NCBI GenBank assembly: GCA_035627155.1
Contig: DASPMF010000173.1
Coordinates: forward strand, 1-45,704
Source of the DNA: Burkholderiales bacterium
Lineage (GTDB): Bacteria > Pseudomonadota > Gammaproteobacteria > Burkholderiales > SG8-39
Reading direction: 5' to 3'
Length of the DNA: 45,704 nt
Positions within the stretch are counted from its first letter, which is position 1, and the number at the start of each line of letters is the position of its first letter. The notes under the pieces were generated by a model that saw only the letters and a program-made list of their open reading frames with translations, did not search any database and had not been told where the DNA came from. The translations under genes and the position numbers were made by a program. Below, one piece after another: positions 17,846-39,504 of the stretch.

Positions 17846-17847
17846 CG

Positions 17848-19511: not shown

Positions 19512-20074
19512 TCCGCATCCTTTCGGTCTTGACGGCGCTCGCCCTCGCGGGCTGCTTCTCCGCCGGCGGCACGCGCGAAGCGCAGCGCTTTTTCGTCCTC
19601 GACGTCCCGCCGCCGCAGGGCGCGGCGGCGAGCGCGGCTTCCCTGCAGCTGCAGCAGACGACCGCGACGCGGTTCTACGACTCGCAGGAGATCGTGTACA
19701 GCCGCACGCCGGGGACGCGCGCCTACTACCAGTTCAGCGGCTGGACCGAACGGCCCAGCCGCCGCATCCACAAGCTCCTCGCCGACCGCCTGGACCACGC
19801 TGGCATCGCGCAGCGCGCCGATGGCCGCGCGAGCCTGCACGTCCACATCGACGAGATGTTCCACGACGCAGCGGCGCCGCCGGGCACGGTGGAGATTCGC
19901 CTCACCGCCGAGCTGCTCGATGCGGGCGGCGCACGGCTCGCGCGGCGCGCGTTCAGCGCATCGGCGCCCTCGGCAACCCATGACGCGCAAGGCGCGGTGC
20001 GCGCCTTCGGCGAAGCGCTCGGCCCGCTCCTCGACGACATCGCCGCCTGGAGCGCACGCGCAACGCAGAGGTGA
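19508..20074 (+). CDS. ABC-transport auxiliary lipoprotein (PqiC/DUF330-like)
   Basis: Lipobox LALAGC. Its position directly after the MCE gene and its size are typical. The start overlaps the upstream stop (ATGA). Confidence 0.75.
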   Translation: MIRILSVLTALALAGCFSAGGTREAQRFFVLDVPPPQGAAASAASLQLQQTTATRFYDSQEIVYSRTPGTRAYYQFSGWTERPSRRIHKLLADRLDHAGIAQRADGRASLHVHIDEMFHDAAAPPGTVEIRLTAELLDAGGARLARRAFSASAPSATHDAQGAVRAFGEALGPLLDDIAAWSARATQR

Positions 20075-24661: not shown

Positions 24662-25048
24662 ATGGTCGCGGTGGGGCACGTTCCCGCCATGCGGTTCACC
24701 ATCAAACGGTTCGGCAGCTACCTTCGCGGGGACCTGCATGACCGGGTGAGCGGCGAGGAGACCGACGAATTCCTGCAGGCCGTCGCAGCCGCCGCGCTGA
24801 CCAGCGGCCACGACCGGATCCTCCTCTCGGTGCGCACGTCGCGCGCCGTCTTCCGCGTCGAGCAATTTCGCCTCGCGGAGCACATGGAAGTGGTGGCATC
24901 GCGCCCTGGTCACCGCATCGCCCTCGTGGCCGACGACCCGGACGTGCGCCTCGCGCAGCAGTACATCGCCACCTTGGCAAGGTTGCGGGGCCTTTCCGTT
25001 CAGGCGTTCGAAAGCGAAGCGGCGGCGATGGCCTGGCTGCTCGCCTAG
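24662..25048 (+). CDS. Hypothetical protein (possibly STAS/SpoIIAA-like fold)
   Basis: RBS GGGAGGGGAG before ATG 24662. GC3 is high. No recognisable catalytic motif. An alternative ATG lies at 24689. Confidence 0.5.
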   Translation: MVAVGHVPAMRFTIKRFGSYLRGDLHDRVSGEETDEFLQAVAAAALTSGHDRILLSVRTSRAVFRVEQFRLAEHMEVVASRPGHRIALVADDPDVRLAQQYIATLARLRGLSVQAFESEAAAMAWLLA

Positions 25049-25159
25049 CGCCGATCGCCCCCCAGCCGCACCCCCTAGGATCAAACGGGCGCTCGAAGCC
25101 CTTGACCTTCCCATCATGGGAGGCCGGAACCTCCTCTCGTGCCGATCAGAGAGGTGACA

Positions 25160-25477
25160 ATGAAACGAATCACGATCAAGCGGTTGCGTCCCAACAGGGC
25201 GGTGAGCCTCCATGTGCCGGCAGAGGCGACGCTGATGGTGGCTCGCGGTAAGGCATGGTTGACCTCCGACGCGGATTCGGCGGACAGATTCCTGTGCCAC
25301 GGCAGGCGATACACGGCGGTGAAGGCCGAACACCTGGTGCTTCAGGCGATCGACAAGACCGTCGTCTATGCGATTCGCTACCCCGAGCCGCGCAACTTCC
25401 GCGTAGGACTGACCGCATTCTGGAAAGGCCAAATCGCGGCGCCGGCCGCACCACGCAGCGCTTTCGGAGGAGGTTAA
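25160..25477 (+). CDS. DUF2917-like small protein
   Basis: RBS AGAGGTG. The pattern LHVPAEATLMVARGKAWLTSDADSADRFL resembles the family as I recall it. Confidence 0.5.
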   Translation: MKRITIKRLRPNRAVSLHVPAEATLMVARGKAWLTSDADSADRFLCHGRRYTAVKAEHLVLQAIDKTVVYAIRYPEPRNFRVGLTAFWKGQIAAPAAPRSAFGGG

Positions 25478-25479
25478 GG

Positions 25480-25968
25480 ATGGACCACGCGCATGAGCGT
25501 CATTCCCAGCATCACGGGGTTGCCAGGTCATCGGCGTCGCTGAATCGTACGGCATGGTCCGCAACGCTTCACTGCCTGACCGGTTGTGCGATCGGCGAAG
25601 TGCTCGGGATGATCATCGGGACCGCCCTGGGCTGGGGCAATGCGCCGACCATCGCCTTGGCCGTCGTACTGGCCTTCTTCTTCGGCTATCTGCTCACACT
25701 GCGGCCGCTGCTGCGCCAAATGAGCTTCTCCAGCGCGGCCAAGCTGGCGCTTGCGGCCGATACCGCGTCCATCACGGTCATGGAGATCGTCGACAACGGC
25801 ATCATGCTAGTGATCCCCGGGGCAATGGACGCCGGCTTGGGCAGCGTCCTGTTCTGGGGGAGCCTCGCGTTCGCACTCGCCGTGGCCGCCGTGGCTGCCT
25901 TCCCGGTTAATCGCTGGCTGATCTCGCGCGGCAAGGGGCATGCTGTCGTTCACGCGCACCATCACTAG
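25480..25968 (+). CDS. DUF4396-family membrane protein
   Basis: Conserved HCLTGCAIGE motif, His-rich N- and C-termini, four hydrophobic helices. RBS GGAGGAGG. Starts 2 nt after the previous stop. Confidence 0.7.
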   Translation: MDHAHERHSQHHGVARSSASLNRTAWSATLHCLTGCAIGEVLGMIIGTALGWGNAPTIALAVVLAFFFGYLLTLRPLLRQMSFSSAAKLALAADTASITVMEIVDNGIMLVIPGAMDAGLGSVLFWGSLAFALAVAAVAAFPVNRWLISRGKGHAVVHAHHH

Positions 25969-26061
25969 TACCAATGCAATTGCGGCTGATGGAAGGATTC
26001 TGGCAATCCTGCGTTTCGGGGCTAGGTTGACACCCCTCTGCGCCATTGCTACCGTCGCCTC

Positions 26062-26385
26062 ATGTCGTTGATCCGGCGCGCGCTGCTGGCCTTCTTGTGC
26101 ATGACCCTTTCGGTCGGAGCGCCGCTTTCATCCGCCTCCACGGCATCGAACGCGCCCTGCGATTCCGCGATGTCCGCTGACATGACCAACATGCCGGACT
26201 GCGGTGGGTGTGGATCGTCCGGCGACACAACCTGCTCGGCTCATTGCAACGCAATGTCGTTCGCGCAACTTCTGACCGCCGCTGTTCCGGCTCGCGTCGA
26301 AGTTGCGGGTGTTGCGCCACAAGAAGGCTGTCCAGGAGCGTTCTGCTCTATCGCCGGTCCTCCGGGTCGGCAGCCTCCGAAGTAA
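26062..26385 (+). CDS. Small secreted Cys/Met-rich protein (candidate metal-binding)
   Basis: Signal peptide (LLAFLCMTLSVGAPLSSA). The mature part has 8 Cys and several Met (PCDSAMSADMTNMPDCGGCGSSGDTTCSAHCNAM ... GCPGAFC). Located directly upstream of cusC. Confidence 0.55.
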   Translation: MSLIRRALLAFLCMTLSVGAPLSSASTASNAPCDSAMSADMTNMPDCGGCGSSGDTTCSAHCNAMSFAQLLTAAVPARVEVAGVAPQEGCPGAFCSIAGPPGRQPPK

Positions 26386-26480
26386 CCCTCCCTCGGTAGC
26401 ACGGCCTGCAAGCCGGGGCGCATCGCGCCCGTCTGTCCGTTCGCTCGTGCGGACGAGTTCTACTGTATCGAAGGAAGGCT

Positions 26481-27731
26481 ATGAAGCACGTTCTGGTAGC
26501 AATGGCCGTCGCTATGGCGGCTGGCATCGGGGCGCGGGCTAACGCTCAAGCCCTATCTCTGGAAGAGGCCCTGCGCCTCGGCGAGAAGCAGTCCCCGAGA
26601 ATCGAAGCGCAACGCTTTGCTGTGACTTCGGCGCAGGAGCAGGTAGGGCGGGCCGGGGAGCTGCCCGATCCAAAACTCCGGTTCGGCATCGAAAACCTGC
26701 CGGTCACCGGAGCCGATCGCTTTCGGTACGACCGGGATTTCATGACGATGCGGACCGTTGGCATCTCACAGGAGCTACCGAACAGCGCAAAGCGCGCAGC
26801 CCGCGAGCTGCGAGCAGAACGCAGCCGCGATGTCGAGCGCGCGATGTTGGGGTCGCAGCGCGCGATGCTCCATCGGGACATCGCCACAGCATGGTTCGAG
26901 GCCTACTTCGCGGAGCGCGCGCGCGTGGTTTTGGAACGCCTCGTCGAGCAGCTCGCGGCGCAGGCTGATGCGGTGAACACCGGGGTCAGGCGCGGAACGC
27001 AATCAGCTACGGACGCCTTTATGTTGCGTGTAGCGGTCGAGCAAGCCCGAGACAGGGTGCTGGATCAAACCCGTTTGGCGTCGCGCGCCAGGATCGCGCT
27101 GGCTGCGTTCCTTCCGCGGGACGCGGAACGCCCGCTGGCTGATGCGCCGATGATCTCGCGCCTGCCTTATCCACGCGACGAGCTGCTTTCCCGCCTGCAT
27201 CATCATCCGCATCTCCGCGTCTACGACGTGCGGCAGGACCTTGCGCGGGCGGACGTGGAGGTAGCCCGTGCCGGCAGGCGCTCGGACTGGAGCGTCGAGG
27301 TGGGCTACGGGTATCGCCGTCCTGCCTTCGACAACATGCTGACCGTCATGCTCGCGGTTGATCTTCCCTGGCAGGCGGAAAGGCGACAGGACCGCGACAT
27401 TGCCTCGCGAGTGGCCGAAGCGGAAAAAGCTCGTGCCGAACGAGAGGACGCCCGGAGGATGCACGAGGCGGAGCTGCGGAGCTGGCTTGCAGACTATGAC
27501 GCAGCGACGGCCCGCATCGAGCGGTACCGCGCCACCGTCATTCCATTGACCCGTGACCGCACTGAGGCAGCGTTGTCCGCTTATCGGGGTGGGCGCGGTG
27601 AGCTGAACGCTGTACTGGATGCCCACCGTGCTGTCACCGACGCGGAGCTTGCGGTCATTGGATTGGAAGCGGAGCAGGCCAAGGCGTGGGCGAGCCTGAG
27701 TTTTCTCTACCCCCATGAGGGTCACCGATGA
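26481..27731 (+). CDS. cusC: TolC-family outer-membrane efflux protein (CusC/CzcC type)
   Basis: Signal peptide, then LSLEEALRLGEKQSPRIEAQR and a duplicated OEP repeat architecture. RBS GAAGGAAGG. Confidence 0.85.
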   Translation: MKHVLVAMAVAMAAGIGARANAQALSLEEALRLGEKQSPRIEAQRFAVTSAQEQVGRAGELPDPKLRFGIENLPVTGADRFRYDRDFMTMRTVGISQELPNSAKRAARELRAERSRDVERAMLGSQRAMLHRDIATAWFEAYFAERARVVLERLVEQLAAQADAVNTGVRRGTQSATDAFMLRVAVEQARDRVLDQTRLASRARIALAAFLPRDAERPLADAPMISRLPYPRDELLSRLHHHPHLRVYDVRQDLARADVEVARAGRRSDWSVEVGYGYRRPAFDNMLTVMLAVDLPWQAERRQDRDIASRVAEAEKARAEREDARRMHEAELRSWLADYDAATARIERYRATVIPLTRDRTEAALSAYRGGRGELNAVLDAHRAVTDAELAVIGLEAEQAKAWASLSFLYPHEGHR

Positions 27732-29218
27732 AACCCGCGATGGCGTTCACCATGTCGTTGGTGCTTGCTGTCGTGGCGGCGGCGGGCGGGTACTACTACG
27801 CGCGTCACGCTGGTCACCCGTCAGTGGATACAGCTCAAGCGGCCCCCGAGGCGGGTCGCAAGGTCCTCTACTGGTTTGACCCCATGTACCCGCAGCACCG
27901 CTTCGACAAGCCGGGGAAATCGCCCTTCATGGACATGCAGCTCGTCCCGAAGTATGCCGACGAAGCGGCGGAAGCAGGCACCATCACCATCAACCCGCAG
28001 ACAGTGCAGAACCTCGGAGTGCGGATGGCGGAGGGCGTAAGAGGCTCTCTGTCGCTGGCCTTCGATGCCGTTGGATCGGTCGCGTACAACGAGCGCGGTG
28101 TGGTGCAGCTCCAGGCTCGTTCGGCAGGGTTCGTGGAAAGGCTGCACGCCCGCGCGCCGCTCGATCCCGTAGCGAAGGGCGCACCGCTCGTCGAGCTGCT
28201 GTATGCCGACTGGGCGGGCGCCCAGGAGGAGTATCTCTTTCTTCGGCGGCAGCAGTCTCCCGAAATGACGCAGCTCGCCCTGGCCGCCCGGCAGCGCCTG
28301 CTTCTTCTCGGCATGACCGAGCGCGACATCGAGGCGGTCGAGCGGGAAGGTCGGACCAGAACCCGAACCACGATCACGTCGCCCATCTCCGGCGTGATCG
28401 CCGAGCTTGGCGTGCGGGAGGGGATGACGGTGACGCCCGGAGCGAGCCTCTTCCGCATCGTGGACCTCTCGACGGTATGGGTGAACGCGGAGCTGCCGGA
28501 GACGCAAGCAGGCTGGATACGCCCCGAGGCGCCGGTCGAAGCCCGAGTGGCCGCGTACCCCGGTGAAGTCTTCAAGGGAAAAGTGGGGGCGATCCTCCCG
28601 GAGGTGTCAGCGGCCACGCGCACCGTCCGCGCGCGAATCGAGCTTCGGAATCCGGGCGCGCGGCTCAAGCCGGGCATGTTCGCGAACCTGCGCTTTTCCG
28701 ATCAGAAGGGAAGGGACGCGATCCTCGTTCCGAGCGAGGCGGTGATACGTCGGGGGTCGGGCAACGTGGTGATCGTTCCGCTGGAGGAGGGAAAGTTCCG
28801 GGTCGCCGAAGTCCAGACCGGCGCGGAGGCCGCCGGGAAGACGGAGATAACGAAGGGTTTGCAGCCGGGCGACAAGGTCGTCGTCTCCGGGCAGTTCCTC
28901 ATTGACTCGGAGGCAAGCTTGTCCGGTGCTCTCTCTCGGCTCGAGAGTGCGGGCGCAAAGCCGGCGGCGCAATCGGGCCTGCATACGAGTCGCGGGGTGA
29001 TTACGGACATTGATCCGAACGCCGGTGAGGTTGAGCTTGACCATGACCCGATCCCGGCGCTCCAGTGGCCGCGCATGACGATGAGCTTCACCGTCGAGAA
29101 GCCGGAGTCGCTGCGGGGATTGAAGAAGGGCGACGCCGTGGAGTTCGACCTATCGGCGAAGCCTGCGCCCGACGGCAGCTACGTCATTCGCAGGATCGAG
29201 CCGCGAGGTGCGAAGTGA
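27728..29218 (+). CDS. cusB: RND efflux periplasmic adaptor (CusB type) with C-terminal CusF-like domain
   Basis: N-terminal [27 protein letters not shown], followed by an HlyD-type adaptor body. The last ~80 aa ([38 protein letters not shown]) are CusF-like. The start overlaps the cusC stop (ATGA). Confidence 0.85.
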
Positions 29219-32200
29219 TTGCCGCGCTCATACGCTGGTCCATTGCGAACCGATTCCTCGTGCTGTTCGCAGCGGTCGCACTGGCCGCGTGGGGTGTCGT
29301 GTCCGTGTTGCGGACGCCGCTCGACGCCATACCGGACCTCTCCGATACGCAGGTCATCATCCGTACCGCCTACGCCGGGCAGGCTCCACGCATCGTCGAA
29401 GATCAGGTGACTTACCCGCTGGCGACGACGATGATGTCGGTTCCCGGCGCGAAGACGGTACGGGGCTATTCGCTCTTCGGCGATTCGTTCGTATACGTCC
29501 TGTTCGAGGATGGAACGGACCCGTACTGGGCGCGTTCGCGGGTGCTCGAATACCTCAATCAAGTGCAATCCCGTCTGCCACCGGGAACGCAGCCCGCGCT
29601 CGGCCCGGATGCCACGGGCGTGGGTTGGATCTATCAGTACGCACTGGTGGACCGAAGCGGGAAGCAGGACCTCGGTCAGCTTCGCGCTCTCCAGGACTGG
29701 TTCCTCAAGTACGAGCTGAAAGCCGTCCCCGACGTCGCGGAGGTCGCTTCGATCGGCGGCATGGTCAGGCAGTACCAGATCGTCCTTTCGCCTGAACGCC
29801 TGCGCGCATACGGCATACCGCATGGGCGGGTGATCGAAGCTGTCCGGAACGCGAACCGGGAAACGGGCGGTTCCATAGTCGAGCTAGGGGAAGCTGAGTA
29901 CATGGTCCGCGCAAGCGGATACCTGAAGACACTCGACGACTTCGCTGCCATTCCGCTCATGACCACCGATGCGGGCACGCCGGTCATGCTCAAGGACGTG
30001 GCGCGGATACAGATAGGGCCGGAAATGCGGCGCGGCATCGCGGAGTTGAACGGGCAGGGCGAAGTCGTTGGGGCCGTCGTCGTCATGCGCCACGGTAGAA
30101 ACGCGCTCCAGACCATCGACGCCGTAAAGGCCAAGATGCAGACGCTCAAGGGCAGTCTTCCGGCAGGCGTCGAGGTCGTCGAGACGTATGACCGCTCGTC
30201 CTTGATCCAGCGGTCAATCCGGCATCTCGGCGAGAAGCTCGTGGAGGAGTTCGTAGTCGTGGCGCTCGTGTGCCTCGCGTTCCTTTTCCACATGAGGAGC
30301 GCCTTTGTTGCCATCGTCACGCTGCCGCTCGGCGTCCTTGCAGCTTTCATCGTGATGCACTACCAGGGCATCAATGCAAACATCCTGTCGCTCGGCGGTA
30401 TCGCCATCGCCATCGGCGCGATGGTGGATGCCGCGATTGTCATGGTGGAGAACGCTCACAAGAAGCTCGAAGGCGTGCAGGTAACTGCCAGCGAACGATG
30501 GAAGCTCATCGCCGATGCGGCGGTCGAGGTAGGTCCGGCGCTTTTCTTCTCTCTTCTCATCATCACGTTGTCGTTCGCGCCGGTGTTCGCCCTGCAAGCG
30601 CAGGAGGGGCGGCTGTTCTCGCCGCTCGCCTACACCAAGACATACGCGATGGCTGCCGCTGCCGGGCTGTCCGTGACGCTCGTGCCGGTCCTCATGGGCT
30701 ACCTGATCCGGGGGCGAATCCCGGAGGAGCGTCGCAATCCGATCAACAGATTCCTCATCGGGGCGTATCGTCCGCTCCTCGCGGCGGTCCTTCGGGCACC
30801 TTGGACGACATTGGTCGTTGCACTGGTAGTCGCCTCGTCGGCGTTCATCCCGATGCAGCGCCTTGGAACCGAGTTCCTCCCGGCGCTCGATGAAGGTGAT
30901 TTGCTGTACATGCCCTCCGCTCTGCCCGGCCTCTCGCCGGGGAAGGCGGCGCAGGTACTGCAGCAGACGGACAAGCTGATCGCTGCCGTGCCGGAAGTGC
31001 GGACCGTCTTCGGCAAGATCGGGCGCGCGGATAGCGCAACCGACCCGGCGCCGCTGGAGATGGTCGAGACAACCATCCAGCTCAAGCCGCGCAGCGAATG
31101 GCGGCCCGGCATGACGCCGGAAAAGCTCGTCGAGGAACTGGATCGGAATGTCCGACTGCCGGGATTGGCGAACCTCTGGGTTCCGCCGATCCGCAACCGG
31201 ATCGACATGCTCGCCACGGGGATCAAGAGTCCCGTTGGCATCAAGATCGCGGGCAACGATCTGGCCGAGATCGAGCAAGTCGCGCAGGACGTGGAGCGAG
31301 TGGTAAGGGACGTACCTGGCGTGTCCTCCGTGCTGGCCGAGCGCGTCCAAGGAGGGCGCTACATCGACATCAAGGTAGACCGGGCAGCGGCGGCCCGGTA
31401 TGCGATGAGCGTGTCCGAAGTGCAGTCGGTCGTCGCCTCGGCCATCGGCGGGGAAAATATCGGCGAAACCATCGAGGGCAGGCAGCGGTTCCCGATCAAC
31501 GTCCGCTACCCGAGGGACATGCGCGACTCCGTGGAGGACCTTCGCAACGTGCCCATAGTCACGCAGCGCGGAGCGCAGATTCCGCTGTCCGCCGTGGCTT
31601 CGGTGGCAGTCACGGATGGTCCACCGATGATCCGGTCCGAGAACGCGCGGCTCGCCGGATGGGTATACGTGGACATCCGCGGCCGCGACCTTGGATCAGT
31701 CGTGGCGGACGCCCAACATGCCGTAGCGGCGAACGTCAAGCTGCCTCCGGGGACCTCGGTGGGGTGGTCCGGCCAGTTCGAGTACCTGCAGCGGGCGACC
31801 GAAAGGCTGCGTGTCGTCGTGCCCTTCGTCCTGCTGGTGATCTTCCTCCTTCTATACCTGACGTTCCGACGCATGGACGAGGCACTGTTGATCATGGCGT
31901 CCCTGCCGCTCGCGGTTGTAGGGGGTTTCTGGTACGTCTATCTACTCGGACACCAGCTTTCGGTTGCGAGCGCCGTGGGCTTCATCGCCCTTGCCGGTCT
32001 GGCGGCGGAGTTCGGCGTGGTCATGCTGGTCTACCTGAAGCAGGCACTCGCGCGCCATGGGCCTCGTCAGCTCGTGGAGGCCATCGACGATGGCGCGGTG
32101 CGCCGCGTGCGACCGAAGGCAATGACGGTCGCCGTCATCCTGGCCGGTCTTGCACCCATCATGTGGTCCGATGGTGCAGGCAGCGAAGTCATGCAACGAA

Positions 32201-32328
32201 TCGCGGCTCCCATGATCGGAGGAATGGTCACGGCGCCGATCTTGTCGCTCTTTGTTATTCCGGCAGCGTACTACCTCATGGTGCGCCGTCGCGTCCGTCT
32301 GTCATCAACGAAAGGAGAAGTTCAATGA
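29215..32328 (+). CDS. cusA: Heavy-metal efflux RND pump, monovalent-cation (CusA) type
   Basis: [18 protein letters not shown]-terminus. The TM4 motif [19 protein letters not shown] is the CusA-type rather than the CzcA-type (DFG..DGA) motif. GTG 29215 overlaps the cusB stop. Confidence 0.9.
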
Positions 32329-32663
32329 ACCGCTTTGCTCTCGCCGTGGCCCTTGCGTTTGCCGCCAGCATGTCCTTCGCGCAGTCGGGTGGGATGCGGG
32401 GAATGGACATGAAGGGTTCCAAGTCCGACAAGAAGGCGGACGAAAAGGCTCATCAGGCCAAGGGCACGGTGTCCAAGGTAGACCCGCAGGCGGGGACTGT
32501 CACCATCAACCACGAACCCGTGGCGAGCATGAACTGGCCGCGCATGAACATGCGGTTCAAGGTGCAAGACAAATCGTTGCTCGGCAAAGCGAAGCAGGGG
32601 CAGCACATCGAGTTCACGTTCGTGCAGTCTGGAAAAGACTACGTCGTGACCGACATAAAGTAG
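32325..32663 (+). CDS. cusF: Periplasmic copper/silver chaperone CusF-like
   Basis: Signal peptide, then [36 protein letters not shown] with the His/Trp/Met/Met ligand pattern. The ATG overlaps the cusA stop (ATGA). Confidence 0.8.
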
Positions 32664-32681
32664 GGCACTTCAAGTAGAGGC

Positions 32682-32716
32682 CCCCGTACCCGGGCTCCGC
32701 CTATCGGGGCGTTTTC
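32682..32716 (+). terminator. Weak candidate intrinsic terminator after cusF
   Basis: CCCCG ... CGGGG 5-bp stem with a long loop, followed by CGTTTTC. The structure is poor. Confidence 0.3.
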
Positions 32717-32737: not shown

Positions 32738-33106
32738 TGGTGGAGGCGGCGGGAATCGAACCCGCGTCCGTAAGCCCTTAACAGTCAGGACTACATGCTT
32801 AGCCTGGTCTTTTGAGCTTCGCCTCGAAAACGCCAACCGGCAGGCTTTTTCTCGGCTAGCCGCTTCGACGGATCTCCGGGCCTAAGCGGCCAAAGCCCGG
32901 AGAGAGGCTGATGTGAATGACGCTGCACTCCTTTTAGGGAGCCTGGCCCATCAGCAGACCAGTGCAGCGTCTAGCCGGTATTAGGCGGCTAGAGCGAAAC
33001 GCTCGTCGTTGGCGTTTGTGTGTTTCCAGACTGGATTTGCGAGGTGATCTGGTCCTCGGCATGCCCTGCGCTGCGTCGATGCCCACGTCGAAACCAGGTC
33101 GCCCCC
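32738..33106 (-). ncRNA. ssrA: tmRNA (SsrA), 369 nt
   Basis: On the minus strand the 5' end reads GGGGGCGACCTGGTTTCGACG and the 3' end reads GGACGCGGGTTCGATTCCCGCCGCCTCCACCA. The tag reading frame 33013..32981 is GCC AAC GAC GAG CGT TTC GCT CTA GCC GCC TAA, giving ANDERFALAA. Confidence 0.92.
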
Positions 33107-33175: not shown

Positions 33176-33181
33176 TATAAT
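33176..33181 (+). promoter_or_regulatory. Perfect TATAAT hexamer, candidate -10 for the cyclase operon
   Basis: Read directly, 24 nt upstream of ATG 33205. No convincing -35 element. Confidence 0.3.
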
Positions 33182-33204
33182 GCCCGCGGGGAGAAGCACG
33201 AGCG

Positions 33205-35043
33205 ATGAACAGCGGGGGGCTCGAGAAAGCGGGAATGGTGGCGGCATACGCCGCGCTGCTTGCGCTCGCGCTGGTCGTCGCGCATTTCCGCCTCGCGGCG
33301 CCGCTCGACCGCCTGATCAGCGACGCGCAGGTGCGCCACGCACGCGAGCACCATCCGCGGCCGGTGGCGAACGAAGTGGTCGTTGTCGGCCTCGACGAGG
33401 CCTTCCTGGATTCGGTGCGCGAGCCGATCGCGCTGCTTCATCCGCACATCGCCGCCTTCCTCGGCGCAATGCAGGCGGCGAAGCCGAGCGTCGTCGGCTT
33501 CGACATGATCCTGCCGAACCGCAGCTACCGCTACCTCACGGCCGCCGGCGGGGAGGAGAGCAACTTCGACCTCGTCCTGGTTCGAGCGCTCCTGCAGGCG
33601 AAGCAGCAGTTCCCGATCGTGCTCGGCAAGACGTACGACCCGGCCAACCAGAAGTTCCGCGACATCCTGGTCGACTTCGTGGCGGCGGCGCGGCCGCCGG
33701 CGAAGTTCGCGGCGCTCGACGGCGAGCTCGGCGACGCGCGCGCATCGGTCGTCGTCTGTCCGGATGAAGACGGCGTGGTGCGCCGCTACGCCGACCCGGC
33801 ATGCCAGCCCGGCGCCGAACGCTGGACGCTCCCGGCGAAGATGGCGGCCTTCAAGGGCAACGCGCAGCCGTGGTCGGGCTTCATCGACTATTCCATCGGC
33901 AACCCGTTCACCTACGTGCCGCTGCAGGACGTGCTGCGCTGGGCGCAGGCAAAGGACGAGGCGCGCCTCGCCGCGACGTTCCGCGACCGGCCGGTCCTCG
34001 TGGGCGCGATCCTGCCTTTCGAGGACCGCCACTGGGTGCCGGCAGAGCTCGCGGCGTGGGAACCCGGCGAGCGCTTCCTCCCGGGCGTGCTGATCCACGC
34101 GCAGGCGCTGCGCTCGATCATGGGAACCGGGCTCGCGCAGCCCGCGCCGCACTGGACGCTGCTCGCGGGCGCCGCGCTCTTCACGCTGCTTTTCTGGATC
34201 CGCAGGGGCTGGCTCGGCGTTTCGGTGCTCGGGCTCCTCGCGCTGGGCTTGCTCGCGCTGGGCGTGTTCCTCGTGCTGCATGGCGTGCTGCTCGCGGCCG
34301 GCGCGATGATCGCCGCCGGCGTCGCCGCGGTCGCGGCGCGCTTCGCGCTCGAGGCGCTGAAGGCGGCGCGGGAGAAGAATTTCCTCAAGAGCTCGTTTTC
34401 CGGCTACGTGAGCCCCCAGGTGCTGAAGGAAATCCTCGCCGGGCGGCTGCGGCCGGGACAGCAGGCGGGCCGCGCGCGCGCCTGCGTGCTCTTCGCCGAC
34501 ATCCGCGGGTTCACCGCCCGCAGCGAGTCCATGCCGCCGGAGGCGCTCGTCGGGTTGCTCAACCGTTATTTCGCGGCCATGAGCGAGGTGATCCACAAGC
34601 ATCGCGGCACCGTGGACAAGTTCATCGGCGACGGGATCATGGCGATCTTCGGCGCGCCGGAGCCGCTCGAGCGGCCCGAGAAGAACGCGCTCGAGGCCGC
34701 CCAGGAAATGCTCGAGCGCCTCGCGCAGCTCAACCGGGAGCTGGAATCCCGGCAGGAGACGCCGCTGCGCATCGGCATCGGCCTGCACAGCGGGGAGGTG
34801 GTCGTCGGCCACGTCGGTTCGAGCGAGCGCCACGAGTACACCGCCATCGGCGACGTGGTGAACGTCGCTTCCCGCATCGAGGGGCTGAACAAGGTGCTCG
34901 ACTGCAAGATCGTCGTCTCGGAGGCGGTGGCGAAGGCGCTCGGCTATCCGCAGGTCCTCGTCAACCTCGGGCAGCGGCCCATCGCCGGGCACTCGCAGCA
35001 GGTCGTGTTCGGCTGGAATCCCGCAGTGATCGAACCCGCATAG
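33205..35043 (+). CDS. CHASE2 sensor domain + class III adenylate/guanylate cyclase
   Basis: N-terminal TM segment, a ~300-aa extracytoplasmic region (VVVVGLDEAFLD...), and three TM helices. Cyclase core VLFADIRGFTARSE...GTVDKFIGDGIMAIFGAP...IGIGLHSGEVVVGHVG...YTAIGDVVNVASRIE. Confidence 0.9.
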   Translation: MNSGGLEKAGMVAAYAALLALALVVAHFRLAAPLDRLISDAQVRHAREHHPRPVANEVVVVGLDEAFLDSVREPIALLHPHIAAFLGAMQAAKPSVVGFDMILPNRSYRYLTAAGGEESNFDLVLVRALLQAKQQFPIVLGKTYDPANQKFRDILVDFVAAARPPAKFAALDGELGDARASVVVCPDEDGVVRRYADPACQPGAERWTLPAKMAAFKGNAQPWSGFIDYSIGNPFTYVPLQDVLRWAQAKDEARLAATFRDRPVLVGAILPFEDRHWVPAELAAWEPGERFLPGVLIHAQALRSIMGTGLAQPAPHWTLLAGAALFTLLFWIRRGWLGVSVLGLLALGLLALGVFLVLHGVLLAAGAMIAAGVAAVAARFALEALKAAREKNFLKSSFSGYVSPQVLKEILAGRLRPGQQAGRARACVLFADIRGFTARSESMPPEALVGLLNRYFAAMSEVIHKHRGTVDKFIGDGIMAIFGAPEPLERPEKNALEAAQEMLERLAQLNRELESRQETPLRIGIGLHSGEVVVGHVGSSERHEYTAIGDVVNVASRIEGLNKVLDCKIVVSEAVAKALGYPQVLVNLGQRPIAGHSQQVVFGWNPAVIEPA

Positions 35044-35053
35044 GGAGGTGCAA

Positions 35054-35641
35054 ATGAACCTCAGACGCTTTCTCGTCGTACTCGCGATCGTCGCCCTTCC
35101 CGCGACGGCGCAGGAGCCCCTCGGCATGGTGCTCGACGTGCAGGGCGCGGTCAGCGCCCCGGAAGCCGGCAAGGCAGCCAAGGTCGAGATGCTTTCCTAC
35201 CTGCGCCCGAACATGACCCTCGAGCTTTCGGCGGGGAGCGCGCTGACCGTAACCTGGTACGCGGACTCCCGGGAGCTTCGCTTCGCCGGTCCGGCGAGAT
35301 TGCGCGTGCTGAAGGATCGCATCCAGGTCGTGCAGGGCAGCGGCGCCGCCGAACGCGCGCTCGGCGAAGAGAAGGTCGCGGCGACGAAGTCCCCGCGGCT
35401 CGCGCAGGCGACGATCACGATGCGCTCGATGAGCGTCCCGCCGCCGCCCGGCGCCACGTCCGGACCGGCCCCGAAGGCGGAACGCCCGAAGCCGGCCGAA
35501 AGCGCGCCGCTCTCCGACTGGGTCCTCTACGCCTCGGCGCTGGAGGAAGCGGGCCTCAAGGCGGATGCGAAAGCGGTCTGGAAGAAGCTTGCCGCCGAGC
35601 GGCCGGGCGAGCCGCGCCTGAAGGCCCTCGCGGAGCGCTAG
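35054..35641 (+). CDS. Secreted hypothetical protein, FecR-like N-terminal beta domain plus Pro-rich linker
   Basis: Signal peptide FLVVLAIVALPATAQE. GMVLDVQGAVSAPEAGKAAKVEMLSYLRPNMTLELSAGSALTV resembles FecR-type domains, which often sit next to CHASE2 proteins. RBS GGGAGG. Confidence 0.55.
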   Translation: MNLRRFLVVLAIVALPATAQEPLGMVLDVQGAVSAPEAGKAAKVEMLSYLRPNMTLELSAGSALTVTWYADSRELRFAGPARLRVLKDRIQVVQGSGAAERALGEEKVAATKSPRLAQATITMRSMSVPPPPGATSGPAPKAERPKPAESAPLSDWVLYASALEEAGLKADAKAVWKKLAAERPGEPRLKALAER

Positions 35642-35646
35642 GCGCC

Positions 35647-36396
35647 TTGAGCTACCTCGCGCTCGCCCGCGACGTCTCGCTCAACCTGGGTGCGCTCGCG
35701 CGCCCGCCGGTGCGCGACGTGCTCGTTCGCCAGATCGAGCGCACGGGTGCGGCGACCCTGAGCGCCATGGTCCTGCGCGCAGCCGGCATCGGCACGCTGA
35801 TCATCGCGTACACCACCTACGTGCTTGCCGCCGACGCGGCGCTCGCGGTGCGCATTCTCGTCTGGGCGGTGCTGCGGGAAATCGGGCCGCTGTTCGCAGT
35901 CGTCATGCTCGTGTTGCGCAGCGGCTCTGCGGTCGCGGCGGAGTTCGCCCTGATGCGCGAGCGCGGCGAGCTGCAGCGCCTCGCCATGATGGGCATCGGC
36001 GTGCGCGACTACGTCGTCGTGCCGACGGTCGTGGCCATGGCGCTCTCGAACGTCGTGGTGACGTTCTATTTCCAGTTCCTCGCCGTGGGCGGCGGCATCC
36101 TGCTCAGCGCGCTCATGATGGACGTGTCGCTCGACGAGCTCACGGAGCATTTCTTCGCCTTGGCCAGCCTGTGGGACGTCGTGTACACGCTCGTCAAAAG
36201 CGCCGGGTTCGGCGTCCTGGTCGGGCTGGTCGTCTCCATGCACGGCCTCGGGCTCGGCGCGCGCAAGCCGGTGGCGCTGCCGGAGGCGGTATCGCGCTCC
36301 GTCATGCAGAGCCTGGTGGCGGTGATGGCCTTCAACGCGGTCTTCGCCTACCTCGTCTTCGGGGTGCTCCTCTTCGGCATCGTGAGGGCCCCATGA
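35647..36396 (+). CDS. MlaE-family ABC permease (second copy)
   Basis: REIGPLFAVVMLVLRSGSAVAAEFALMRERGELQRL parallels the MlaE core of 16727..17845. TTG start 5 nt after the previous stop. Confidence 0.8.
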   Translation: MSYLALARDVSLNLGALARPPVRDVLVRQIERTGAATLSAMVLRAAGIGTLIIAYTTYVLAADAALAVRILVWAVLREIGPLFAVVMLVLRSGSAVAAEFALMRERGELQRLAMMGIGVRDYVVVPTVVAMALSNVVVTFYFQFLAVGGGILLSALMMDVSLDELTEHFFALASLWDVVYTLVKSAGFGVLVGLVVSMHGLGLGARKPVALPEAVSRSVMQSLVAVMAFNAVFAYLVFGVLLFGIVRAP

Positions 36397-36989
36397 GCGC
36401 GGCGCTCGGCGGCGCGGTCGTTCCGCTCGGCGCCCGGTACCGGCTGCTCGCGCCCGCGCGGCCCTATCGCGACGCGGTGCTGCGCTATCTCGCCGGCCTC
36501 GACGCCGAACCGCCGCAGGACGGGGCGGCGCCGAAGCTTCGCGAGCTCCGCCAGGCGGCCGGCGGCCGCGTGGCGATCGCGTTCGAGGACGGCGGGCTGC
36601 TGCAGTGGCTGGATGCGTGGCAGAACGCAATCCTGCCGGCCGACTTCCACGCGCTCGAGAAGCTGCGCCCGGCGCGCCGCCGCGCGCGGGGCATTTTCGC
36701 CGCCCTCGGGCATGACCCCGACGTCCTCGCCGGCCGCCCCGTCGGCGGGCTCAGCCTGCTCGAGAGCCGGCTCGTCGGCTTCGTCAAGGCGATGCTCATG
36801 GAAGCGGACCTGCTCGTGCTGGACGGCCTGCACGAGCGCCTGGGGCCCGAAGAGCAGCAGCAGGTGTCCGGCTGGATCCGCCTTTTCCGCGACCGTTATC
36901 CGCTGCGCCGCCTGCTCTACGTCGGCCTGCACGAGGAGCCGGCGGTCGCGGAGTTTGACGACCTGCGCGACGACCTGAGGCGCGCATGA
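36393..36989 (+). CDS. Degenerate ABC ATPase homologue (MlaF-like fold, no Walker A)
   Basis: Aligns by eye to the Q-loop-to-H-loop part of MlaF: VAIAFEDGGLL (Q replaced by E), LSLLESR in place of LSGGxxxR, LLVLDGL in place of LLLLDEP, and GLHEE. No GxxGxGK[ST] is present in this frame, even in the upstream extension to 36171. Confidence 0.65.
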   Translation: MSAALGGAVVPLGARYRLLAPARPYRDAVLRYLAGLDAEPPQDGAAPKLRELRQAAGGRVAIAFEDGGLLQWLDAWQNAILPADFHALEKLRPARRRARGIFAALGHDPDVLAGRPVGGLSLLESRLVGFVKAMLMEADLLVLDGLHERLGPEEQQQVSGWIRLFRDRYPLRRLLYVGLHEEPAVAEFDDLRDDLRRA

Positions 36990-37993
36990 AGATGGACCGC
37001 GACGAAACGCTCGTCAAGCCGCGCGGCCTGCGCGGCGCGCTCCTCTTCGCGCTGCCGGCGCTGATCGGCGTCCTGCTGGTCGCCACCGTGATCGCGTGGA
37101 AGCAGGAGCTCTTCGCGAGCCGCACCCCGATCTACGCCTTCAGCGACAGCGCGCTCGGCATGACGCGCGGGATGCCGGTCAAGGTCTTCGGCATCACCGT
37201 GGGAAGCGTGTCCGGCGTGGAGATCGTGCCGGGCGCCCCGGGCGCCCGGGGCCGGGTGCGCGTGCGCATGGACATCAACAGCGAATTCCTGCAGCACATC
37301 ACCCGTGATTCGCGCGCGCGCCTCATGCGGGAGACGCTGGTAGGGCAGAGCGTCATCGAGATCGTTCCGGGTGCGCTGCAGTCGCGGCCGGTGGCGCGCA
37401 ACGAAGTCATCGCCTTCGAGCGCGGCAAGACGCTCGGCGAGCTGTCCGAGGAGCTCAACAAGGCGCTCGAGCCGGTGCTCGCGCAGGTGAAGGACGCCAT
37501 GGCGGACCTTCGCAACCCGGACGGCCAGGTGCACAAGTCGATGCAGCAGGTGTCGGTGCTGCTGCAGGAGCTGCCCGAGACGAACCGGCGGCTGCAAAGC
37601 GTGATGGACGGCGCGACGCGCACGCTCGGCAAGGCCGAGCACCTGCTCGGCACGGCGGACCGTGCGATGGCGGGCACCGCGGCCAGGGCGGAGTCCGCGC
37701 TGGGCGAGATCGAGAAGACCGCGGGGACCGTCGGCGCCGCCGCCCCGGGCATCCTGCTCAAGATCGACGCGGCGGCGGAGAGCCTCGCGCGCACCTCCGA
37801 CTCGGCGCGCCGGCTCACCGAAGACGCCGCCCGGCGCATGCCGCCGCTCCTCGACGACGGCGCCTCGGTCGTGCGCAATGTCGGCGAGGTGGTGGAGGGG
37901 GCGCGCGGCGCGTGGCCGCTGCGCAACTTCGTCGAGCAGCCGGGCGTGAAGACGCTGCCGATCGACACGCACGAGACGTCCGGCCCGCGCTGA
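36986..37993 (+). CDS. MlaD/MCE-family protein (second copy) with helical C-terminus
   Basis: TM segment ALLFALPALIGVLLVATVIAW, then MCE core GMPVKVFGITVGSVSGVEI. The start overlaps the upstream stop (ATGA). Confidence 0.8.
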   Translation: MKMDRDETLVKPRGLRGALLFALPALIGVLLVATVIAWKQELFASRTPIYAFSDSALGMTRGMPVKVFGITVGSVSGVEIVPGAPGARGRVRVRMDINSEFLQHITRDSRARLMRETLVGQSVIEIVPGALQSRPVARNEVIAFERGKTLGELSEELNKALEPVLAQVKDAMADLRNPDGQVHKSMQQVSVLLQELPETNRRLQSVMDGATRTLGKAEHLLGTADRAMAGTAARAESALGEIEKTAGTVGAAAPGILLKIDAAAESLARTSDSARRLTEDAARRMPPLLDDGASVVRNVGEVVEGARGAWPLRNFVEQPGVKTLPIDTHETSGPR

Positions 37994-38832
37994 TGCGCCT
38001 CGGCCTCGTCCTCTGCGTTCTCCTCGCGGCCGGATGCGCGTCCGGGCCGGTCGCGAAGCTGCCCGCGAAGCGGCAGCAGGCGATCGAGGTCAACAACCGC
38101 GGCACCGCCCTTTTCATGCGCGGCGACTACGCCGGCGCCATCGCGCAGTACCGCGCCGCGCTCGAGCTCGAGCGGTCGGTGGAGAACGAGGATGGCATCG
38201 CGGCGAACCTCATCAACCTGTCCATCGCCTACCAGCGGCAGGGAGACCGCGCCGCGGCCTCGGCGGCGGTCGCCGGGATCCTGGACGAAGGGGTGCTGCG
38301 CTTTTCGCCGCAGCGCGTCGCGGAGGCGGCGTTGCGCGATGCGATCCTGCGCTTCGACGCCGGCGACGCCGACGGCTCGGCCGGCTCGCTTTCGCGCGCC
38401 CGCAGCGCCTGCGCCGCGCCGTGCGTGCTCGCCGGAAAGCTGGACAACATGGAGGCGCAGCTCGCCTATGAACGCGGGGAGCTCGAGGCCGCCCGGGAGG
38501 CCGCGAACCGTGCGCTCGCGGCAAACCGCGCGAGCGGCGACCGCGACGAAGTGGCGAACGCCTTGCGCCTGCTCGGTGCGATCGAAATCGAGCGCAAGGA
38601 CCTTGCCGCCGCGCGGGCGGCGCTTGCCGAAGCCCTGCAGATCGACAAGGCGCTCGCCGTGCCGCCGCGCATCTACCGCGACCTCGTGCTGCTCGGGCGC
38701 GCCGCGGCAGCGGCGTCGGACGCCCAGGCGGCGCGGAGGTACTACGCCCGCGCGCTCGCCGTGGCGCGCGCGGTCCCGGACGAGCGCTCGGTCGCCGAGG
38801 CCACGCGCCTCTCCGCGGCCCTGCCGAGGTAG
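37993..38832 (+). CDS. TPR-repeat lipoprotein
   Basis: Lipobox LLAAGC. Repeated TPR-like helices (NNRGTALFMRGDYAGAIAQYRAALEL ...). The start overlaps the upstream stop (TGATG). Confidence 0.75.
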   Translation: MRLGLVLCVLLAAGCASGPVAKLPAKRQQAIEVNNRGTALFMRGDYAGAIAQYRAALELERSVENEDGIAANLINLSIAYQRQGDRAAASAAVAGILDEGVLRFSPQRVAEAALRDAILRFDAGDADGSAGSLSRARSACAAPCVLAGKLDNMEAQLAYERGELEAAREAANRALAANRASGDRDEVANALRLLGAIEIERKDLAAARAALAEALQIDKALAVPPRIYRDLVLLGRAAAAASDAQAARRYYARALAVARAVPDERSVAEATRLSAALPR

Positions 38833-38835
38833 CGC

Positions 38836-39504
38836 CTACAGGACGCGAAGCAGGTCGAGCGGTTCCCGGATCACCGCGTCGGCGTTCCAGGCATGCGGAC
38901 CGCCGTTGTCCGGGCTCGTGTAGCCCCATTCCACGGCGACGGGCCGCATGCCGGCCGCGCGCCCGGCCTGGATGTCGCGCAGGTCGTCGCCGAGATACCA
39001 GCAGGTCGATGGCGCGAGGGAAAGCTTCTTCGCGGCGAGCAGCATCGGCGCCGGATGCGGCTTGAAATGCGGCGTGTCATCACCGCCCACCACGCACGCG
39101 GGCTCGAGCTTGAGGAACGTCACGATCCGCTCGGCGAAGCGGCGCGCCTTGTTCGTGACGATGCCCCATGCGAGGCCGCGCTCGCCGAGCGCGTGCAGCA
39201 GCTCCCGCATGCCCGGGAAGAGGGTGGTCTCCTCGCACATACGCGCCTCGTAGTGGCGAAGGAACGCTTCCCGCAGCGCAGGGTATTGCGCATCCTCGGG
39301 CTTGAGGGCAAAGCCGACGCGGAGCATGCCGCGCGCGCCCATGGAGGCGTACGGGCGCACGGCCTCGACCGGCAGCGGGGCGAGTCCAGCTTCGCCGCGC
39401 AGACGGTTCAAAGCACCGCCGAGATCCGCCGCTGTGTCTGCGAGGGTGCCGTCGAAGTCGAACAGCACCGCGCCCGGGACGTTACTCACGCGTGCAGCGC
39501 GCAA
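38836..39504 (-). CDS. HAD-IA phosphatase (phosphoglycolate phosphatase Gph / MurNAc-6-P phosphatase MupP-like)
   Basis: DFDGTLADT motif I, IVTNK motif [14 protein letters not shown] motif III/IV. The true start may be the GTG at 39489. Overlaps the ubiG 3' end. Confidence 0.85.

Follow-up and report, generated by a model that had tools for sequence, protein, structure and literature searches.

Six adjacent genes on the plus strand (33205-38832) of contig DASPMF010000173.1, from a Burkholderiales bacterium (GenBank assembly GCA_035627155.1), encode a predicted CHASE2 receptor adenylate cyclase, a small exported protein, an MlaE-family permease, a homologue of the MlaF ATPase, an MCE/MlaD-family protein and a TPR lipoprotein. 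The stretch analysed comprises positions 1 to 45,704 of this contig and is called the window. The six genes are one conserved unit, and the conserved core inside it is a cassette of four genes: MlaE, an ATP-binding cassette (ABC) nucleotide-binding domain (NBD) which by its motifs appears catalytically dead, MlaD and the TPR lipoprotein. This cassette is found in at least three phyla, and the cyclase is one of several partners that recur beside it. The original prediction, made from the sequence of the window, had taken the six genes as one functional unit; the linkage it proposed is conserved, whereas the core proved to be the smaller cassette and the cyclase is lost in some relatives. The reading favoured here is that of a non-energised trans-envelope MCE complex coupled to signalling by cyclic AMP (cAMP), to which, as a whole and with its established parts included, a probability of about 0.5 can be given. 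The module is unlikely to be an ordinary lipid pump, since in all three phyla it keeps company with genes for cAMP signalling and for exported caspase-like proteases.

The gene boundaries and overlaps, read from the sequence, agree exactly with those predicted earlier (Table 1). All junctions are overlaps or gaps of 5-10 nt: ATGA overlaps join genes 3 and 4 (36393-36396) and genes 4 and 5 (36986-36989), and at a TGATG (37991-37995) the ATG of gene 6 shares 1 nt with the MlaD stop. The GC content at third codon positions (GC3) is 0.89-0.96 across all six frames, against 0.42-0.53 at second positions (GC2). As had been expected, no internal promoter or terminator stands out after the cyclase gene in a sequence scan: no terminator-like site was found by consensus inside the six-gene block, and the sole internal promoter-like match, at 34613, is at chance level (1 found vs 0.3 expected). 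The upstream border is a divergent transfer-messenger RNA (tmRNA) gene (32738-33106, minus strand), and the TATAAT hexamer at 33176 is a candidate -10 box of the operon promoter. Downstream the block is bordered by a HAD hydrolase gene in convergent orientation (38836-39504); its stop and that of gene 6 are 3 nt apart.

Table 1. Positions in the window of the six-gene operon and of other features discussed in the text
Feature	Position	Strand	Remarks
TATAAT hexamer, perfect	33176..33181	+	24 nt 5' of cyclase ATG; candidate -10 box, no clear -35; not called by the consensus scan
Gene 1, predicted CHASE2 receptor adenylate cyclase, 612 aa	33205..35043	+	ATG at 33205, TAG ends at 35043; Pfam CHASE2 and Guanylate_cyc
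Gene 2, small exported protein, 195 aa	35054..35641	+	ATG at 35054 behind GGGAGG ribosome-binding site; stop 35641
Gene 3, MlaE-family inner-membrane permease, 249 aa	35647..36396	+	TTG start at 35647; Pfam MlaE
Gene 4, pseudo-MlaF (shortened ABC NBD homologue, predicted dead), 198 aa	36393..36989	+	assigned by profile and fold
Gene 5, MCE/MlaD-family protein, 335 aa	36986..37993	+	Pfam MlaD, TIGR00996
Gene 6, TPR lipoprotein, 279 aa	37993..38832	+	TPR_12, lipobox
Exported orthocaspase, 487 aa	7084..8547	-	signal peptide; Peptidase_C14 PF00656 (8e-20); YSGHG and DACHSGG (His-Cys dyad); C-terminal DUF4384
Exported DUF4384-type protein, 291 aa	6212..7087	-	4-nt overlap after caspase gene
Canonical MCE ABC operon	16727-20074	+	372-aa MlaE; intact ABC ATPase (GGSGTGKS, LSGG, DEPT); MlaD; ABC_trans_aux lipoprotein

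The product of gene 4 has no Pfam match: PF00005 missed it, compared with 5e-32 for the canonical paralogue of the window, and the profile of its family reaches the ABC ATPases of the PDB only at E ~3e-5. Its AlphaFold2 (AF2) model, with a predicted local distance difference test (pLDDT) value of 84, has MceG (8fed_H) and MlaF (6xbd_I/7cha_I) as best Foldseek matches, with TM-scores of 0.63-0.68. By profile search and modelled fold it is a true ABC NBD homologue. As a control, the ATPase of the canonical MCE operon (17848-18585) was aligned with it motif by motif. The canonical Walker A, GGSGTGKS, corresponds to APARPYRD in gene 4 (read APARPYRDA); the Q-loop FQDGALF to FEDGGLL, with Gln replaced by Glu; the signature LSGGMRKR to LSLLESRL; and the Walker B FLDEPT to VLDGLH (LLVLDG, with no catalytic Glu). 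The H-loop VTHD has no conserved His as its counterpart, and from Walker A to Q-loop the canonical enzyme has about 30 residues more than gene 4. With all five ATPase motifs replaced, gene 4 is to be regarded from its sequence as catalytically dead; the Walker-A-less ATPase homologue proposed earlier was rightly recognised, and its Q-loop, signature, Walker B and H-loop are degenerate as well.

The gene 4 family comprised 68 proteins, then 232 with a broader profile (among 5.8 billion clusters), and a hidden Markov model (HMM) scan of 1.84 billion representatives at 50% clustering gave 304 matches at E <= 1e-10. Walker A (GxxxxGK[ST]) is absent from all of the top 148 family representatives. 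The longer members (~220 aa) keep the whole NBD layout with SDxEK in the place of the P-loop, and conservation across the family peaks in the Q-loop region (GGLxxxLxxWxN) and the signature helix (LSxxExRLxGFVRA). An antisense open reading frame (ORF) at 36348-36932 (minus strand, 194 aa) was favoured over gene 4 by a naive GC3-based gene caller. It was ruled out as the real gene, given that the gene 4 frame has a GC3 of 0.91 and its protein has homologues down to 30% identity with NBD-derived motifs; the ORF is an artefact of an Ala/Arg/Gly-rich, GC1-rich plus-strand frame.

Searches with Pfam and NCBIfam HMMs confirmed the CHASE2 and class III cyclase, MlaE, MlaD/MCE and TPR lipoprotein identities that had been proposed, and assigned the permease and MCE genes to MlaE and MlaD and not to an unrelated family. 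Gene 3 matches MlaE (PF02405, 9e-36) and TIGR00056 (5e-29), and its residues 24-239 align to E. coli MlaE (6xbd_G). Gene 5 has an N-terminal transmembrane (TM) anchor and a single MCE domain (residues 48-129), and matches MlaD (PF02470, 2.6e-14), TIGR00996 (Mtu_fam_mce, 3e-17 over residues 27-297) and P. aeruginosa MlaD (7ch8_A, 3.7e-5). Its long C-terminal region may be helical, like that of actinobacterial Mce proteins, as sub-threshold matches to DUF948 and Snapin (residues 152-206) suggest. Gene 6 matches TPR_12 (4.9e-18) and has the lipobox LLAAG/C with Ala at +2. Its counterpart always lies directly 3' of MlaD, as the fourth constant member of the cassette, and a lipobox is found in 83 of 103 TPR-profile matches at related loci, a set that includes some CHAT-TPR proteins. 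Neither database revealed a MlaB (STAS), MlaC or MlaA domain in the six proteins, or a cAMP-binding domain in any cassette protein.

The distribution of the cassette was examined with a one-genome-per-species scan using a betaproteobacterial profile, which gave 42 loci, all betaproteobacterial, and with a metagenome scan seeded with seven distant family sequences, which gave 80 loci. Among these 80 metagenome loci, the order MlaE, dead NBD, MlaD, TPR was invariant wherever the sequence was long enough to show it. Three gene orders link the CHASE2 cyclase to the cassette in Betaproteobacteria. Type A (cyclase, gene 2, MlaE, dead NBD, MlaD, TPR) is that of the window and of betaproteobacterial metagenome-assembled genomes (MAGs), one of which, locus L001, has quite different flanks. 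Type B (dead NBD, MlaD, TPR, cyclase, MlaE) is found between tRNA-Val(GAC) and thrS in about 30 loci of Sideroxydans, Sideroxyarcus, Ferrigenium and other Gallionellaceae. Type C (MlaE, DUF4384 protein, TPR-CHAT, CHAT, one or more caspases, dead NBD, MlaD, TPR, cyclase) is that of Gallionella and Ca. Ferrigenium straubiae. The linkage therefore survives three permutations, which is strong evidence of functional coupling. A fourth order links cyclase and cassette in the Geobacteraceae Citrifermentans bremense and Geoanaerobacter pelophilus; exact-sequence look-up placed the cassette in these two species and in Geotalea uraniireducens and Trichlorobacter lovleyi. The arrangement thus holds not only in related genomes, as the original prediction had anticipated, but also in distant ones.

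Other partners were found in the more distant lineages. One Geobacteraceae lineage has, in order, an exported WD40-caspase, a FecR (PF04773) and TPR protein, the CHASE2 cyclase, a metallo-beta-lactamase (MBL)-fold enzyme of PDEase_II-like type and then the cassette. This MBL-fold enzyme is similar to an atypical phosphodiesterase for cAMP that has been considered in M. tuberculosis (PMC9995111). The Nitrospirota carriers found by exact-sequence look-up are Dissulfurispira thermophila and Thermodesulfovibrionales MAGs. In Nitrospirota, D. thermophila included, a CRP-like regulator (cNMP_binding and HTH_Crp_2) is divergent from MlaE and the cassette is flanked by exported DUF4384 proteins, WD40- or SLH-caspases and TPR-CHAT proteins; in many loci of this kind the DUF4384 protein is encoded directly 5' of MlaE. 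Neighbours were counted by profile hits within 9 kb in 46 non-identical loci with adequate flanks, since clustering of the longest ORFs was unreliable in high-GC loci, where antisense ORFs were picked. A CHASE2 cyclase was present in 27 of these loci, any cAMP-related gene in 33, and a caspase, CHAT or DUF4384 gene in 15.

Gene 1 matches CHASE2 (3.7e-24, residues 21-332) and Guanylate_cyc (1e-24, residues 425-592) in Pfam. Its layout, with the TM helices taken from hydrophobic stretches in the translation (~11-30 and 317-385), is an N-terminal TM helix, a periplasmic CHASE2 domain, three TM helices and a cytoplasmic class III (IIIb-type) cyclase domain. The nearest solved chains are Synechocystis Cya2, Spirulina CyaC and P. 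aeruginosa CyaB, aligned over all catalytic motifs, and alignment of the catalytic domain to CyaC (1wc0) and CyaB (3r5g) shows an intact hexad (D432-K472-D476-T546-N553-R557). The Lys of DKFIGD and the Thr of YTAIGD form the pair that is typical of the class IIIb adenylate cyclases CyaC and CyaB, and the adenylate specificity proposed earlier therefore holds. Judged by these residues, gene 1 is a bona fide CHASE2 class IIIb receptor cyclase with all the catalytic residues of an adenylate cyclase.

The relatives differ in this respect. When 45 cassette-linked cyclase domains were aligned, the hexad D-K-D-T-N-R was complete in the window and in three of four other type A loci, the exception being L001 with Ser and Gly at the last two positions. 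It was also complete in 4/4 type C loci and in the five Geobacteraceae loci with usable sequence. In contrast, it was mutated in 27 of the 28 type B loci, mostly of Gallionellaceae, and a single one keeps all six residues. The commonest change is N to S together with R to K, and several loci also lack both metal-binding Asp residues. These type B proteins nevertheless stay full-length (L010-L045; genes at ~11.2-13.0 kb in each locus), and their mean identity is 67% in the cyclase domain against 60% in the CHASE2 domain. The loss of the hexad in a domain that is still conserved is the signature of a pseudoenzyme, and the type B CHASE2 proteins are probably pseudo-cyclases kept for a non-catalytic role. 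With the catalytic residues mutated in nearly all type B relatives, the CHASE2 protein and the cassette cannot everywhere be tied together by cyclic nucleotide synthesis, which the original prediction had placed at the centre of the system. The conservation of the mutated domains suggests a structural partnership instead. Of the arguments at hand, it is the strongest for regarding the CHASE2 protein as a physical partner of the cassette and not as a mere co-regulated neighbour.

Second class III cyclase genes were seen a few kb from the cassette in two loci (L037, 739-2685; L020, 6046-6540). The one of L037 has a canonical active site, and together with the mutated cassette-linked cyclase it could in principle form a C1/C2-like heterodimer.

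By analogy with MlaFEDB and Mce1, the cassette would build an envelope-spanning complex. Two dead NBDs would clamp onto the coupling helices of an MlaE dimer, the MlaD hexamer would extend as a helical tube, and the TPR lipoprotein, whose lipobox has Ala at +2, would be located at the outer membrane. Given that such a complex would bind no ATP, it could not cycle; instead of pumping, it would act as a static bridge that binds lipids or hydrophobes, or as a scaffold that senses a ligand. The CHASE2 protein would be its physical partner: the periplasmic domain, aided by gene 2 (or by the FecR and TPR protein in Geobacteraceae), would sense the condition of this complex or of the envelope, and the cytoplasmic cyclase domain would convert this reading into cAMP. 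In other lineages the same cassette may be wired to a cAMP phosphodiesterase, to a CRP-like regulator or to exported caspase/CHAT proteases. The direction preferred here is from envelope state to cAMP, with the reverse direction as a live rival.

Several observations weigh against this proposal. Nine of the 46 well-flanked loci have no signalling or protease neighbour at all. The cyclase is lost or truncated, with the cassette kept, in four betaproteobacterial loci (L011, L023, L043, L048), and the cassette stands without any cyclase in many more, so that the cyclase must be dispensable for the core function. The sampling is biased to Betaproteobacteria, the first 48 loci having been fetched with a betaproteobacterial profile, and the neighbour counts in the 46 loci are descriptive and not frequencies. 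A search of all 45.7 kb of the window for a cAMP receptor gene found none. Cyclases with the changes N to S and R to K may keep a reduced activity instead of losing it altogether, and the contact between the CHASE2 protein and the cassette is one that we infer only from their linkage and from the retention of the mutated cyclases. Moreover, the divergent CRP-like regulator fits an action of cAMP on the cassette and not the reverse.

The most serious alternative takes up this last point. The cassette could be an ATP-independent MCE bridge, comparable to PqiAB and LetAB, through which hydrophobic compounds or lipids pass down their gradient under the control of cAMP. The CHASE2 cyclase, joined in other lineages by the phosphodiesterase and the CRP-like protein, would then regulate this bridge. 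ATPase-free MCE systems are established (PqiABC, LetAB), and the position of the CRP-like gene, divergent from MlaE in Nitrospirota, is typical of a local regulator. In Geobacteraceae the cyclase and MBL/PDEase_II-like genes lie immediately 5' of the cassette, and the persistence of the cassette after loss of the cyclase can also be understood in this way. In M. tuberculosis, moreover, a lower cAMP level leads to more fatty-acid uptake while Mce1 abundance is unchanged (PMC9995111). However, control by cAMP leaves unexplained why a full-length, conserved CHASE2 protein with mutated catalytic residues is present in type B loci, and none of the cassette proteins could bind cAMP through a recognised domain. 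MlaE-type permeases are otherwise known only with active ATPases, and it is not obvious why a passive bridge would retain a dead NBD rather than lose it. On balance such a conduit seems unlikely, though it deserves to be taken seriously.

Defence is a less probable explanation still, and we regard it as doubtful. According to it, the cassette and the CHASE2 protein would sense attack by phage, predator or toxin and trigger the exported caspase/CHAT proteases in an envelope conflict or programmed death, with cAMP as the alarm. The recurrent neighbours are in its favour (Peptidase_C14 proteins fused to WD40, SLH, PDZ-S41 or DUF4384, TPR-CHAT proteins and DUF4384 proteins), as are the known caspase-CHASE2 fusions (PMC3501461; PMC8195603). 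In addition, Pycsar cyclase models hit the cyclase domain (8e-29), and a PADLOC caspase model hits the caspase of the window. All the inspected proteases, and likewise the DUF4384, FecR and transglutaminase-like proteins, carry signal peptides, however, and the proteases would therefore have no cytoplasmic targets, unlike known abortive-infection effectors. The PycC match reflects generic class III homology, the residues are of the adenylate type and no cNMP-binding effector gene is adjacent. Furthermore, the locus occupies fixed core positions (tRNA-Val/thrS in Gallionellaceae, beside trmD-rplS in Nitrospirota) and not variable defence islands. Membership in a known defence system was rejected, the PADLOC search having returned only the generic PycC and caspase matches; Pycsar was rejected too, gene 1 being by its sequence a membrane receptor with the adenine-type Lys/Thr pair and no cNMP-binding protein being encoded in the window.

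That the cassette is an ordinary ATP-driven Mla-like transporter placed beside a cyclase by chance, with a gene 4 that is merely divergent or a canonical MlaF borrowed in trans, is very improbable. It would agree with the solid MlaE and MlaD assignments, with the labels MlaF or ABC ATPase that Joint Genome Institute (JGI) pipelines give to relatives of gene 4, and with the presence, 17 kb away, of a canonical MCE ABC operon whose ATPase is intact. Against this, gene 4 lacks the Lys/Ser of Walker A, the Gln of the Q-loop, the SGG of the signature, the Glu of Walker B and the His of the H-loop, the stretch from Walker A to Q-loop is shortened and the loss of motifs is family-wide; a heterodimer with canonical MlaF would still have both composite sites defective, and across four gene orders in two phyla the cyclase stays linked to the cassette. 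Decay of the operon to a non-functional remnant, which the loss of catalytic residues in two enzymes (the NBD everywhere, the cyclase in many relatives) might evoke, has next to no probability given intact frames with high GC3 throughout, 304 dead NBD representatives with sharply conserved non-catalytic motifs, mutated type B cyclase domains that are on average 67% identical and a cassette order that does not vary among the 80 metagenome loci. In effect, no room is left for chance juxtaposition, an active transporter or gene decay.

The non-energised complex coupled to cAMP can be extended to a wider proposal, which is put forward tentatively and to which we give a substantial chance, though less than even odds, of a functionally new class of envelope signalling complex. 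A phylum-spanning MlaE/MCE family may have given up ATP-driven pumping and, with a pseudoenzyme NBD, become a trans-envelope sensor or scaffold with an integral CHASE2 subunit, working with exported caspase/CHAT proteases in a so far unrecognised envelope-surveillance pathway made up largely of pseudoenzymes. Its CHASE2 subunit would be an active adenylate cyclase in the window, in Geobacteraceae and in the type C loci of Gallionella and Ferrigenium, and a pseudo-cyclase in the type B Gallionellaceae.

Several known systems share features with this module. MlaFEDB(-MlaC-MlaA) of E. coli, A. baumannii and P. aeruginosa likewise has an MlaE permease side by side with a single-MCE MlaD, an NBD fold close to that of gene 4 (MlaF) and a lipoprotein. 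Here, however, the NBD lacks the motifs for ATP binding and hydrolysis and is ~65 residues shorter, MlaB, MlaC and MlaA are missing, the lipoprotein is a TPR protein, MlaD has a C-terminal extension of ~200 residues and the operon includes a receptor cyclase. The actinobacterial Mce1 and Mce4 systems resemble it in that gene 5 fits TIGR00996 over its whole length and gene 4 has MceG (8fed_H) as best structural match. They have six MCE genes whereas there is one here, so that the MCE protein is presumably a homohexamer; the LucA/Mam accessory proteins are absent here, MceG is an active ATPase and the mycobacterial cyclase is not encoded with the transporter. In M. tuberculosis the cAMP level is nonetheless linked genetically to Mce1-dependent fatty-acid uptake (PMC9995111). 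PqiABC and LetAB (YebST) are ATP-independent and in the former the outer-membrane lipoprotein PqiC caps the MCE protein, which can be compared with the TPR lipoprotein here, but they have PqiA/LetA-type membrane proteins instead of MlaE, multi-MCE proteins, no NBD-like subunit and no signalling genes.

On the side of the receptor, P. aeruginosa CyaB and S. meliloti CyaD1/CyaD2/CyaK have the same layout of TM helix, CHASE2, three TM helices and class III cyclase as gene 1, and CyaB, like CyaC, has the same Lys/Thr class IIIb-type active site. To our knowledge no MCE or Mla partner has been described for any of these CHASE2 cyclases. Those of S. meliloti are activated through the outer-membrane protein NsrA and read by the CRP-like Clr (PMC13001267), whereas the partner here would be a four-protein cassette and not a beta-barrel, and many of the orthologues lack catalytic residues. 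In BiofilmReg of Burkholderia a CHASE2 histidine kinase forms an operon with a LysM and FecR periplasmic protein (PMC5192318). A small exported protein thus stands beside a CHASE2 receptor in both cases, and the Geobacteraceae version has a genuine FecR (PF04773) and TPR protein; gene 2, in contrast, has no FecR match, the output is a cyclase and not a kinase, and there is no response regulator. BceAB-BceS, FtsEX and PstSCAB-PhoU-PhoR share with this module the idea that an ABC-type membrane complex passes information to a signalling protein instead of moving a nutrient in or out, but these need an active ATPase, whereas here the ATPase appears dead and the partner is a cyclase. No published description of the dead-NBD cassette or of its CHASE2 link was found in the open-access literature, subscription journals being outside the scope and absence there not being proof; the pairing of CHASE2 with MlaE is thus apparently undescribed, in line with the original prediction.

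In the current view, MCE and Mla systems transport lipids, with an ABC ATPase to drive them or, in the Pqi/Let type, with no ATPase at all. A large conserved family that keeps an ABC subunit without its catalytic motifs, tied to cAMP genes and caspase-like proteases, would represent a different use of the MCE architecture. The cassette is also a candidate partner for the CHASE2 domain. We know of no small-molecule ligand for this domain, and the sole characterised CHASE2 input, in S. meliloti, comes through an outer-membrane protein (PMC13001267). The carriers identified oxidise iron (Gallionellaceae), reduce metals (Geobacteraceae) or are sediment bacteria that cycle sulfur. The biology of the envelope is of central importance to them, and the question can be tested in those that are cultured or enriched (Citrifermentans bremense, Geoanaerobacter pelophilus, Geotalea uraniireducens, Dissulfurispira thermophila, Sideroxyarcus emersonii and Ca. 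Ferrigenium straubiae).

Gene 2, which the original prediction had called FecR-like, encodes an adaptor-like protein and is confined to type A operons. It has a signal peptide and, in its AF2 model, an N-terminal beta-sandwich (~residues 23-102), a Pro-rich disordered linker and C-terminal TPR-like helical hairpins, and none of its 104 homologues has a Pfam domain. The FecR profile (PF04773) gave no match at E <= 5 to gene 2 and 19 relatives; TPR_14 was matched by 17 of these 20 family members and FecR by none. A jackhmmer search from a true FecR and TPR neighbour did not reach gene 2, and Foldseek gave no FecR-type match to the model, the best PDB match being an unrelated 76-residue anchoring domain (E 7e-3). 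A weak hint came from hhalign against FecR and TPR proteins (36% probability, over the signal peptide and the first strands). The FecR identity was consequently dropped; the domain architecture of gene 2 is nonetheless analogous to that of the FecR and TPR proteins.

The caspase and DUF4384 genes at 6.2-8.5 kb in the window, which had not been tied to the cluster before, are candidate accessory genes of the cassette. Their products are 53% and 37% identical, respectively, to the counterparts at the type C locus L005, and orthologues are found inside or beside the cyclase/MCE locus in L004, L005, L012, L046 and L047. In L004 the pair lies directly and divergently beside the cyclase, with ssrA on its far side. 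As the pair is 25 kb from the operon here, a rearrangement around ssrA is implied. The canonical MCE operon of the window means that an ordinary energised paralogue coexists in the genome with the one whose ATPase is predicted dead. Other cAMP genes (CRP-like, phosphodiesterase-like) and a CHAT gene were searched for in the window and none was found.

Further exported proteins were noted near the cassette elsewhere. In Ca. Ferrigenium straubiae KS (L012, 6310-8745) the gene that separates those of the caspase-DUF4384 protein and the dead NBD encodes an 811-aa exported fusion of Peptidase_C14, PDZ and Peptidase_S41 (tail-specific protease) domains. In a Nitrospirae MAG (L052, 1831-7343) the genes beyond the divergent CRP-like gene encode exported FlgT_N-like, CsgG/LpoB-like and SLH-domain proteins and a caspase-SLH fusion, a string that points to a protease module associated with the surface layer or the outer membrane. 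In Geobacteraceae-type loci (L092, 6052-8112; L099, L104 and L116, ~1-1100) the WD40-caspase repeatedly has an exported transglutaminase-core protein as its neighbour.

With respect to genomic position, the type B operon begins within ~40 nt after the tRNA-Val(GAC) gene (~8750-8870 in L014, L022, L028, L036 and L044) and is followed by thrS, and a tmRNA gene adjoins the locus in L004 (1827-2196), L020 (15042-15403) and the window. This repeated closeness to tRNA-like genes may be just ancestral synteny. The tag encoded by the tmRNA of the window is ANDERFALAA. Beyond its 3' end, positions 25000-32700 have a lower GC content (0.60-0.67 vs ~0.70) and encode a DUF4396 protein, an outer-membrane efflux protein, a CusB-CusF fusion, a CusA-type resistance-nodulation-division (RND) pump and a small CusF-like ORF; this block looks like a metal-efflux island integrated at ssrA.

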